Source: a virus
Virus genome (UHGV): UHGV-0124835
Strand: one strand, 5' to 3'
DNA: 16,897 nucleotides
Shown: positions 2,896 through 10,564 of the stretch, one piece after another
Position numbering within the stretch: the first letter of the stretch is position 1
Layout: each line of letters opens with the position of its first letter
The notes under the pieces: model-generated
Told to the model about the DNA's origin: nothing
What the model saw: only the letters and a program-made list of their open reading frames with translations
Databases searched by the model: none
Position numbers and translations under genes: made by a program

Positions 2896-3159
2896 TTAAC
2901 CCGCAGTGCTTTCAACTGATGAGGGGAACAAAATCTTTTCATCAAACCCTGCATTCATATCATTGACAGCAACACACCAATCCATTGACGAACGATTATC
3001 AAGAGCCTCCATGATTTCATCCATGCGGCGCAGGTCATACAGGTAAATGCTTTTATCGCCAATGGTGTAAAAACCAATTTTTTTCGGTGATGGGCAGCGA
3101 TCAAGAACGTCCTGTAATTCGCTCAACCATGCTTGTTCTTTTTTTGTCAAAGTTGCCAT
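2896..3159 (-). CDS. hypothetical protein (87 aa)
   Basis: Track ORF 2896..3321 trimmed to the internal ATG at 3159 (MATLTKKEQAWLSELQ...), preceded by AAGGAGAG and lying 1 nt after the TGA stop of the upstream gene. Confidence 0.6.
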   Translation of the reverse strand: MATLTKKEQAWLSELQDVLDRCPSPKKIGFYTIGDKSIYLYDLRRMDEIMEALDNRSSMDWCVAVNDMNAGFDEKILFPSSVESTAG

Positions 3160-3160
3160 A

Positions 3161-3784
3161 TCACTCTCCTTTGATGCGAATGCCAGCGGCGCGCTCGGCT
3201 TCACTTTGTTCCCAAAACCACTTGTGAAGCTCCATAAGCTTTTCGTCAATCGGTGCATATTTGCGATTAAAGTAGGCCTGAGCATCTTTCTCAGATTCGT
3301 CCGGCAATTCGCCTGGGCCAAACAGTGTGTTATAAATCCATGCCAGTCCGCTTTTAGCGTCGCCAGTTGCCTGCCATTCGATAATCGCAGCCTGCATGAC
3401 CAGAATGTTTTTCCCGATTAACAGGTCCAGCTCTTTGAACCGGTTGCGGATGTATGCATTCTCGCTTTGTAATTTTGCGTTGCGCTTCTCTGCGGCTTCC
3501 AGCTCAACACGCAGCTTCCCTACAGTTAGCGCAATTTCCTCGTTCTCCTGATCGCGGCGTTTTATGTATTGCTGGTTTCTTTCCCGTTCATCCAGTAGTG
3601 CCAGCACGGTTTCTGGTCCGGTCAGAAATTTGAAGGCATTGAGCGCATCAATATCCACACCGTAATCTTTAAGTTCCTGTTCACTTAACAAATCATCATC
3701 AGTTGGCAACATTAACAGGCGTTCCATTGCTGGAATTGCACGTTCTGCTGCCTCACGCAGTGCCTGGTAATTAATTTCGCTCAC
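3161..3784 (-). CDS. Ead/Ea22-like family protein
   Basis: 207-aa ORF; GTG start preceded by AAGGAGG; N-terminus MSEINYQALREAAE... matches the characteristic N-terminus of lambdoid Ea22-like proteins (from memory). Confidence 0.7.
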   Translation of the reverse strand: MSEINYQALREAAERAIPAMERLLMLPTDDDLLSEQELKDYGVDIDALNAFKFLTGPETVLALLDERERNQQYIKRRDQENEEIALTVGKLRVELEAAEKRNAKLQSENAYIRNRFKELDLLIGKNILVMQAAIIEWQATGDAKSGLAWIYNTLFGPGELPDESEKDAQAYFNRKYAPIDEKLMELHKWFWEQSEAERAAGIRIKGE

Positions 3785-3830
3785 TGGTTGCCTCCTTTGC
3801 GAAGCTCTGCGGCTAAATACTCCAACGCCA

Positions 3831-4223
3831 TTACCGGGACGCCAACAAGCACAGTTCCTTTAAACTTCTTATGCAGGTGCTCGATAGCTGTATCCACGCC
3901 CTGCGCCGTACTTCAGCCAGGAAAGCATCGGTGGCCGGAGTTTCAGGAATCCGTCTCCTCATCAGTTCTATTGCATGATTGAACCCGAAATCTTCAGCAA
4001 GAGATACGTCATCCATATTGTCATTGTCGTCCTCAATATCCCGTGGTTCTGGAATTGCAGACTTTATTACCGCATTCTCCGCCGCCAGCGCCGCGCACTT
4101 GGCCTCAAGAGCGGCAACCACTTCCTGATGGTCTTTGTACTTAACGTATGAGCCGGAGATGTCATCACCTTCGGTGTTTAGCCATGCGTCATTGCAATTC
4201 ACTGCGTAGGTTCTGATGCTCAT
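3831..4223 (-). CDS. hypothetical protein (130 aa), possibly the C-terminal part of a split Ea22-like paralog
   Basis: Track ORF 3831..4280 trimmed to the ATG at 4223 (MSIRTYAVNCNDAW...), preceded by GGGAGAG; that ATG overlaps the TGA stop of the upstream 61-aa ORF (ATGA). Confidence 0.5.
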   Translation of the reverse strand: MSIRTYAVNCNDAWLNTEGDDISGSYVKYKDHQEVVAALEAKCAALAAENAVIKSAIPEPRDIEDDNDNMDDVSLAEDFGFNHAIELMRRRIPETPATDAFLAEVRRRAWIQLSSTCIRSLKELCLLASR

Positions 4224-4405
4224 GTTGATGCTCTCCCGCCCCTGACAGACGCCAGGCCAGTCAATAAAGTATCCGCACAATGCCTACCCTCAGACGTGCG
4301 CGCAGGATAAATGCCGTTATGACCCGGCAAAATATATGCTACCCATTCATCTTGCGTTGCCTGTTCCGCCGCCTCGCGCAGTGCCTGATAGTCAATCTTG
4401 CTCAC
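4220..4405 (-). CDS. Ead/Ea22-like N-terminal fragment or short paralog (61 aa)
   Basis: GTG start with AAGGAGG; N-terminus MSKIDYQALREAAEQATQDEW parallels the gene at 3161..3784; the C-terminal half is Arg/Gly-rich and looks out of frame. Confidence 0.45.
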   Translation of the reverse strand: MSKIDYQALREAAEQATQDEWVAYILPGHNGIYPARTSEGRHCADTLLTGLASVRGGRAST

Positions 4406-4706
4406 TGGCAGCCTCCTTTGCCGGGATTTCTAACTTTTGAGTGGTTGTATCAAATTCAAACAACTTAACCACGTCATCAAACAGGACATAATCACCATCA
4501 GGATCTTCAGTCATATCTGCGCCACAATCCTGACCGCACGAGTCGCAACCATCCATATCAAGCTCGTATCGCTTCAGGTTTGCGATATTTGATAAATTCA
4601 GCGCCAGTACAGCCAGGTCATAAACCTCTTCGGCAGTGACATCGCTGTTCAGTCCCATTTCATGGCGATATATGATTTTTTCTACTCGTTGTTTTGTGAT
4701 CGTCAT
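4392..4706 (-). CDS. hypothetical protein (104 aa)
   Basis: Track ORF 4392..4730 trimmed to the ATG at 4706 (MTITKQRVEKIIYRHEMG...) preceded by GAAGAGGAAA; its stop overlaps the start of the next gene. Confidence 0.6.
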   Translation of the reverse strand: MTITKQRVEKIIYRHEMGLNSDVTAEEVYDLAVLALNLSNIANLKRYELDMDGCDSCGQDCGADMTEDPDGDYVLFDDVVKLFEFDTTTQKLEIPAKEAASEQD

Positions 4707-9687: not shown

Positions 9688-9795
9688 GTCTCTGCACCTT
9701 ATAAAGCGGGTGCCGGGGGTCGCAGCCCGGAATTGCATACGGCGATATATGACGCGCCAGCGTCTTTTTTATCGTCCGCGCTCACGCACGCCAGA

Positions 9796-9906
9796 ATTAT
9801 GGTGGGCTGGGCAGGGGAGCCGAAAGGCTCGCCGGTTTCCGTATGCGCCGGTACTGCGAACCCTGTTCAGTTCACCACCCATGAGTTTCGCAGCTCCGGT
9901 GGTGGA
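9796..9906 (+). ncRNA. c4-like antisense RNA candidate, module A
   Basis: Conserved ATTATGGTGGG box; GAAA-tetraloop hairpin 9817-9830; CCGG-closed 12-nt loop TTTCCGTATGCG (9836-9847) complementary to TGCATACGGAGG at the SD of the downstream gene; 8-bp TCACCACC/GGTGGTGG stem (9872-9879 with 9898-9905). Ends are not defined. Confidence 0.5.
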
Positions 9907-10343: not shown

Positions 10344-10451
10344 GTCTCCGCACCTTATAAAGCGGGTGCCGGGCGTGGAAACCCGAAATTCAATATAGAG
10401 CACAACCGCGCTCATGCGGTTTTTTCGTGTCATGAGCATCGTTACGCCCAA

Positions 10452-10564
10452 ATTATGGTGGGGCGTGCAGGGCCAACTTCGGTTGGGCCGGGTTCTATGT
10501 TGACCGGTATTTCCACCCCTGTACGTCTCACCACCTATATGGTCGTGGAAAGCCTTGGTGGTGA
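10452..10564 (+). ncRNA. c4-like antisense RNA candidate, module B
   Basis: Same architecture as module A with compensatory changes: UUCG-tetraloop hairpin CCAAC-TTCG-GTTGG (10473-10486); CCGG-closed 12-nt loop GTTCTATGTTGA (10492-10503) complementary to TCAACATAGGGG at the SD of the downstream gene; conserved TCACCACC/GGTGGTGA stem. Confidence 0.5.

Follow-up and report, generated by a model that had tools for sequence, protein, structure and literature searches.

A likely chimera of Ead/Ea22-type and EaE-like parts, divided by two frameshifts, in the early-left region of an E. coli lambdoid prophage

The window analysed here (16,897 nt, virus genome UHGV-0124835) carries at positions 3785-4405 a gene that is spread over three reading frames and is followed directly by an Ea22-like gene. 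This arrangement raises the question of whether the broken gene is a decaying copy of its neighbour, a pair of genuinely coupled small genes or a product of some other history. Comparison with homologs leads us to consider it likely that the locus is a mosaic early-left (exo-xis/ea) gene of an E. coli lambdoid prophage, which would have originated as a chimera and then suffered two frameshifts. The minus strand is the coding strand for every gene of the region. Specifically, the first ORF (ORF1; 4220-4405, minus strand) opens with a GTG at 4405, closes with a TGA at 4220-4222 and encodes 61 aa beginning MSKIDYQALREAAEQ, with a Shine-Dalgarno sequence, AAGGAGG (4412-4418, minus strand), read from the sequence 6 nt upstream of the GTG. 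An ATGA overlap (4220-4223, minus strand) joins it to a second ORF of 130 aa (ORF2; 3831-4223, minus strand), which extends from an ATG at 4223 to a stop at 3831-3833. A third-frame tail (3781-3903, minus strand) reads QGVDTAIEHLHKKFKGTVLVGVPVMALEYLAAELRKGGNQ up to its stop, a TGA (3781-3783) that overlaps the GTG (3782-3784) of the downstream lambda-Ea22-like gene (3161-3784, minus strand; 207 aa beginning MSEINYQALREAAE; Pfam Ead_Ea22 match at 2e-30; phrog_250). The latter has its own AAGGAGG (3791-3797, minus strand) 6 nt upstream of the GTG and, in other alleles, its start normally forms a GTGA stop-start coupling with the gene under study. An Rfam scan of 3785-4405 returned no match.

The original prediction described the two ORFs joined by ATGA, the protein-like continuation running into the next GTG and the Shine-Dalgarno and start codon common to both genes, and all of these are present as described. 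It found the arrangement to fit a duplicated Ea22-like gene decaying by frameshifts, with genuinely coupled small genes as an alternative. The two tandem start regions are indeed ~83% identical over ~58 nt in alignment, but BLASTP finds the encoded proteins alike only at residues 1-16 (13 of 16 identical). The kinship of the two genes therefore extends to the Shine-Dalgarno sequence and the first 16 codons, with no likeness over the remaining length, and the idea that one is a duplicate of the other has to be given up.

Several other features of this region and of the wider window deserve mention. The Ead/Ea22-type C-terminal motifs (…LRKGGNQ and …IRIKGE, each followed by the stop) are encoded by AAAGGAGG or AAAGGAGA (3781-3800 and 3157-3175, minus strand), each lying 5-6 nt ahead of the start of the following gene, where stop and start codons overlap or abut. 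The K/RGE motif at Ea22 C-termini has been called 'of unknown significance' (PMC7093339, PMC10834534); its placement in these sequences raises the prospect that it may be an embedded Shine-Dalgarno of the next gene. Just past the downstream Ea22 gene lies an open ORF of 87 aa (2896-3159, minus strand), and PGAP calls a small gene in the equivalent position 'frameshifted' in three relatives (L001 2887-3065, L002 2766-2944 and L003 2768-2946). Farther away, two tandem isrK sRNA copies, each followed by a C4 antisense RNA, lie 656 nt apart (9694-9882 and 10350-10538, plus strand), all four matches exceeding the Rfam gathering score; the pair looks like a duplicated P1/P7-type c4-ant immunity module within a lambdoid prophage.

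Alignment against intact homologs, which the original prediction had proposed as a check, resolves both frame breaks as an extra TG and a missing G, and on this comparison they are true indels and not chance ORF patterns. The first break (4276-4279, minus strand) is a 2-nt duplication at codon 43, TGTG versus the TG of in-frame alleles: in the alignment of the window and its relatives, the split genes read CATTGTGCGG and the fused gene CATTGCGG. The second (3906-3907, minus strand) is a 1-nt deletion after residue R106 of ORF2, GG versus the GGG of all intact alleles, the window alone reading TACGGCGC and all other aligned alleles TACGGGCGC. The nearest complete E. coli relatives display three allele states at the locus, namely a single 228-aa 'ead/Ea22-like' gene (strain BEC1, L002), a pair of 61 aa and 168 aa (O111 strain 12A, L003; the 168-aa protein is WP_000027851.1) and a pair of 61 aa and 147 aa (Ecol_316 and M2021, L001 and L004). 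Without its G deletion, the window's gene is exactly the 61+147 allele. ORF1 comprises 42-43 native residues of the Ead/Ea22 N-terminal module followed by an out-of-frame tail of ~18-19 residues (ADTLLTGLASVRGGRAST), and is identical to WP_001300192.1, a separate CDS in RefSeq genome annotation. ORF2 comprises 106 native residues of an EaE-like protein (MSIRTYAVNCNDAWLNTEGDD..., a coiled coil and ETPATDAFLAEVR) and 24 out-of-frame residues, and differs from its intact 147-aa allele, WP_001586955.1, by the missing G alone. What remains in the third frame is a relic of the original C-terminus (residues 108-147 of the 147-aa protein), with DNA 100% identical to that of the intact Ecol_316 allele. 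Decay by frameshifts is thus real to the extent that two indels split a protein of 203-228 aa and leave a relic of its end; it fits the break at 3906-3907 and the ORF1 fragment, but not the separation of ORF2 from ORF1.

The origin of the gene emerges from its internal joint. The Pfam Ead_Ea22 profile (PF13935; gathering cutoff, 27 bits) matches ORF1 at positions 1-45 (54 bits), ORF2 at positions 48-138 (39.9 bits) and a conceptually repaired 207-aa protein at 1-138 in one stretch (98.4 bits), all three above the cutoff. The domain does not lie in one uninterrupted frame, positions 1-45 and 48-138 being separate and the C-terminus occupying a third frame. A reading of this 1-45/48-138 split as one ancient domain broken in two was dropped after a stand-alone family surfaced. 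In a three-way DNA alignment, the window matches a canonical Ead gene (L107, P0156) exactly until GACTGGCCTGGC and shows no relation to it past there, whereas a stand-alone gene (L103) is unrelated to the window before GCCTGGC and identical past it. Because the matches and mismatches of these two genes are opposite around this 7-nt microhomology (4251-4257, minus strand), where the Ead 5' fragment meets the EaE-like leader, the alignment identifies the uninterrupted 203-228-aa fused form as a chimera with its crossover within GCCTGGC.

The protein alignment places the same boundary. The Ead-type part consists of the first ~52 residues up to DWPG, shared with canonical relatives, which have C-G/E-x-x-I-D/K-W-P/T-G in the unshifted frame. 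Past DWPG, canonical Ead proteins continue with DGQ.NA..NA.YIAA.NP and not with CQGRESINMSIRTY, whereas the fused proteins read CQGRESIN-MSIRTYAVNCNDAWLNTEGDD, of which MSIRTYAVNCNDAWLNTEGDD is how the stand-alone proteins begin; the canonical core (..NA.FIAA.NP..ALLDE..) is absent past this point in the comparison with P0156, P0160, P0247, P0270 and P0300. The residues directly after the joint correspond to a former 5' leader of the stand-alone gene (4224-4257, minus strand), with the Shine-Dalgarno sequence GGGAGAG (4231-4237) 7 nt upstream of the ATG, which fused alleles translate as (W)PGVCQGRESIN. The leader occurs once in the window. In L103, an 88-nt intergenic region ends in ...CAATCAGT GCCTGGCTTCTGTCAGGGGCGGGAGAGCATCAGC ATG, the same ~36 nt as 4224-4257 of the window, and in L102 this 36-nt leader, GCCTGGCTTCTGTCAGGGGCGGGAGAGCATCAGC, recurs (2272-2306) in front of an unrelated 65-aa gene, which an ATGA in turn joins to an EaE-like gene. 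The leader is found as intergenic DNA in L102 and L103 only, both non-RefSeq assemblies; in every complete E. coli genome that has it, it adjoins the Ead fragment. We also considered the ~37-nt leader as a widespread intergenic cassette and rejected this, only 5 phage records containing it.

Some fused genes have diverged further. In P0099, P0113 and P0001 (fused proteins of 226 aa and 203 aa), small in-frame deletions (GRESISIRTY, GRESIRTY) delete the internal ATG, and fused alleles without it are common (116 and 253 contigs). With the internal ATG lost, the stand-alone product can no longer be expressed, which makes these alleles committed fusions.

A search of 1.8 billion cluster representatives reveals the family to which ORF2 belongs: dozens of proteins at 42-72% identity have their first residue precisely where the fused protein has M61, and the stand-alone EaE-like proteins include P0185, P0199, P0204, P0241 and P0275, of 142-164 aa. 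ORF2 has the N-terminal motif M-x(2,4)-TYAVNCNDAWLNTEGDDISGSYVKY, made up of near-invariant columns, at the very start of the protein. The genes upstream of the stand-alone homologs are unrelated (a 100-aa gene and a terminator-like hairpin in L101, a 65-aa gene in L102, a 52-aa gene and an 88-nt gap in L103, DUF7740 in L104 and a 78-aa gene in L105), and tblastn finds no Ead fragment upstream of the stand-alone genes in L101-L105. Virulent Skatevirus phages encode a 108-aa 'EaE protein' starting MSEVKTYAVNCNDAWLNTEGDD. Over the first 60 codons of ORF2 homologs, pairwise dN/dS is 0.1-0.35 for most pairs, which argues for a real coding family read from that start; by this measure, ORF2 is under purifying selection over its first 60 codons. 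ORF2 is equipped with a start codon and ribosome-binding leader of its own, both of which recur in L103 as intergenic DNA. Given an independently conserved family with the same methionine and leader and the signature of purifying selection, the comparison identifies the ATG of the ATGA overlap as the native start of an EaE-like gene, exposed by the frameshift, and not as a random break, and ORF2 would be translated from this start of its own. Independent conservation among homologs, raised by the original prediction for each of the two ORFs, is thus found for ORF2 and its stand-alone family but not for ORF1, which is not conserved at depth. As for function, PHROGs lists all pieces as 'unknown function', with the 61-aa product as its own family (phrog_14804), a literature search on EaE function turned up nothing relevant, and a PDB sequence search with the intact protein gave no meaningful match (best E-value 0.5, antibody chains).

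A simple pseudogene, that is, a unitary Ea22 paralog derived by tandem duplication and decaying by random frameshifts with no functional piece, is an unlikely description of such a locus. It would accommodate the two non-triplet indels relative to intact homologs, the majority held by in-frame forms and a second lesion that arose on an already broken copy. Against it stand the mere 16 residues common to the tandem genes, the exact coincidence of ORF2 with a conserved stand-alone gene, start codon and leader included, and the presence of the 61+147 allele on hundreds of contigs. The distribution of lesions in other lineages also speaks against it. The Ead fragment has been severed elsewhere by a change from CCGGGT to CCGGT (20 complete genomes and several IMG/VR loci), by a T-run deletion, by AACGGC to AACGC and by a lesion in the leader. 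In IMG/VR, 31 of 68 loci of chimeric architecture are severed and ORF2 is damaged in only 2-3, locus counts without phylogenetic independence, since clonal prophages enter them repeatedly. Overall, at least five independent lesions crowd the 180-nt N fragment versus at most three in ~450 nt, and ORF2 is open in almost all severed alleles. This excess suggests, at the level of sequence comparison, that the locus can dispense with the Ead fragment and that ORF2 is maintained.

On an adaptive reading, at least five independent severing frameshifts would suggest selection to restore the stand-alone EaE-like protein. We nevertheless regard it as quite doubtful that the splitting is an adaptive gene fission, in which selection restores the stand-alone protein by severing the Ead fragment and the 61-aa remnant, which has an N-terminal helix in common with the neighbouring Ea22, might modulate Ea22. 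If fission were adaptive, the window's extra deletion would be the first step of real loss.

The TG duplication can be assessed from its frequency and diversity. Alleles were counted with 50-nt queries centred on the junction, a placement that forces every 28-nt megablast seed to cross it. TGTG occurs in 34 and the in-frame TG in 196 of 5,426 complete E. coli genomes, with 20 TGTG and 74 TG loci in IMG/VR; the exact 61-aa protein is encoded by at least 999 contigs, compared with 582 for the 147-aa protein. Over 50 nt, the 34 TGTG junctions agree at 99% identity or more, and TG junctions are more diverse. The in-frame reading, CGYFIDWPG, agrees with canonical Ead proteins in alignment, whereas the shifted tail of ORF1 has no counterpart in any aligned Ead relative. 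Since the unshifted frame fits Ead, the shifted tail matches nothing and the TGTG alleles are less diverse, we infer that TGTG is the derived state, a polarity drawn from homolog reading frames and low TGTG diversity rather than from a rooted phylogeny. TGTG is found on several 5' haplotypes, which could reflect recurrent mutation or recombination. In P0081, P0138 and P0139, which are other chimeras, CGYFIDWPGVCQGRESINMSIRTY… follows an N-terminal module of quite another kind (…AAENTSLKQSEKE), the two meeting exactly at the codon of the TG duplication; recombination, and not only mutation, may have acted at this codon.

These data make it very unlikely that ORF1 and ORF2 form a selected two-gene operon, both functional, ATGA-coupled and ancestral in arrangement. 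Such an operon would explain the ATGA overlap with an SD-like GGGAGAG upstream, the annotation of both ORFs as CDSs in RefSeq and the wide occurrence of a 61-aa protein with its own PHROG. However, the last 18 residues of ORF1 lack the Ead counterparts that the unshifted frame has, the representative search yields no diverged 61-aa family, the TGTG alleles are nearly uniform at the junction and stand-alone ORF2 homologs are preceded by unrelated genes.

The second break has a different distribution: by the same kind of junction-centred query, none of the 5,426 complete E. coli genomes has the GG allele and 371 have GGG. Its absence from all these RefSeq genomes, together with the shortness of the G run, could point to one or both indels being sequencing or assembly errors in the window, but this is highly improbable. 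The exact 130-aa protein is encoded on at least 60 draft or metagenome contigs (115 index blocks), and the GG deletion is common to two independent assemblies, an NCBI draft genome and an ENA metagenome scaffold (L005 and L006), which match the window at 99.97% and 99.92% identity across 6.4 kb and differ from it by 2 and 5 SNPs, each having its own. Occurrence on so many contigs, including independent assemblies with different SNPs, argues that GG is a real allele, and TGTG for its part is found in 34 complete genomes. Few intact proteins have the window's C-terminal module (P0153, 207 aa; P0154, 205 aa; P0001, 203 aa). Programmed ribosomal frameshifting that restores the full-length protein from the split allele is hardly credible: a canonical -1 heptamer, T_TTA_AAG (3858-3864, minus strand), is in phase only in the post-deletion ORF2 frame and a -1 slip there would re-enter the original frame, but it is probably a chance occurrence, as an estimated ~0.5 in-phase heptamers are expected per ORF this long, no slippery site lies at or just upstream of either break, in-frame alleles predominate, and lesions that differ in site and kind between lineages are a signature of mutation and not of a conserved recoding signal.

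As a real allele, the G deletion has clear consequences on paper. It replaces the last 41 residues of ORF2 (107-147, ending ...AELRKGGNQ) with 24 unrelated ones, leaving ORF2 without the complete C-terminal module that reaches the next gene's start. The stop now lies at 3831-3833, 46 nt upstream of the next GTG, so that the GTGA stop-start coupling is lost, despite which the downstream gene retains its own AAGGAGG. An intact relative was modelled with AlphaFold (31-sequence alignment, mean pLDDT 64), and confidence is high only in a central helix and in two C-terminal helices that form a hairpin (residues ~152-198); a long helix is predicted at residues 85-112, and the model is poor for residues 17-73 and uninterpretable over the N-terminal 73 residues. 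In this model the deletion falls within the first helix of the hairpin and removes the second, which is why the truncated product would be expected to be impaired. The G deletion at 3906-3907 is the one truly degenerative lesion of the locus.

The Ea22 of lambda and Stx phages is early, prolysogenic and modular, built from a short N domain, a coiled coil and a C-terminal domain that varies, and that of lambda and Phi24B favours lysogeny over lytic growth and forms a tetramer via the coiled coil (Dydecka et al. 2020, PMC7093339; Goddard et al. 2024, PMC10834534). The gene under study shares with it the location in the early-left operon between recombination genes and xis/int, the N-terminal motif MS.I.YQALREAAE, the layout of short N domain, coiled coil and variable C-terminal domain, and a C-terminus ending in a K/R-G-rich motif. 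It differs in that only the first ~52 residues are Ead-type, the remainder deriving from a stand-alone gene, and in that the window copy is split over three frames. The downstream 207-aa gene is of the lambda/Stx Ea22 type, whereas the gene under study is otherwise EaE-like. With the EaE protein of Skatevirus (for example, Salmonella phage ZBSTP8, WQY91085.1) it has in common a homologous start methionine and TYAVNCNDAWLNTEGDDISGSYVKY followed by a coiled coil. Unlike stand-alone EaE-like proteins, the window's ORF2 has an Ead fragment upstream on the same transcript, with the ATGA overlap, and has lost its C-terminal module to the 1-nt deletion. Relative to the RefSeq split pairs (WP_001300192.1 with WP_001586955.1 or WP_000027851.1), ORF1 is identical and the difference is the window's additional G deletion. 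By analogy with Ea22, this family probably modulates the lysis-lysogeny decision.

Under the preferred reading, that of a chimera later divided by frameshifts, the following order of events at the locus can be proposed from the sequence comparisons. A crossover within GCCTGGC would have joined the first ~160 nt of an Ead/Ea22-type gene to the leader, until then untranslated, of a stand-alone EaE-like gene, with the joint in frame by chance and giving rise to the 203-228-aa 'ead/Ea22-like' fusions common in E. coli, in which the old leader is read as CQGRESIN. The TG duplication at codon 43 (4276-4279) would then have shifted the frame of the Ead fragment, and the first stop of the new frame falls on the native EaE-like ATG (ATGA), which would leave the 61-aa remnant and allow the EaE-like gene to be expressed alone again from its native GGGAGAG and ATG, perhaps assisted by termination-reinitiation. 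Finally, the window's lineage would have dropped one G of the GGG run (3906-3907), losing the hairpin end of ORF2 and ending the coupling to the next gene.

The locus as a whole is a case of ordinary prophage mosaicism and mutational decay, and all its products are already in public databases. Many E. coli 'ead/Ea22-like family protein' entries (61, 130, 147, 168 and 228 aa) would be states of one chimeric locus; for annotation, the 147-aa and 168-aa ORFs would be EaE-like genes with a native start and not fragments, and the 130-aa form should be flagged as frameshifted. The interest is mild, with little import beyond annotation, and lies in how clean the chimeric joint is and in the recurrent splitting of the fused modules. 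In these respects the locus would be a clear illustration, from the poorly understood exo-xis/ea region, of modules fused through microhomology and then split apart again repeatedly.
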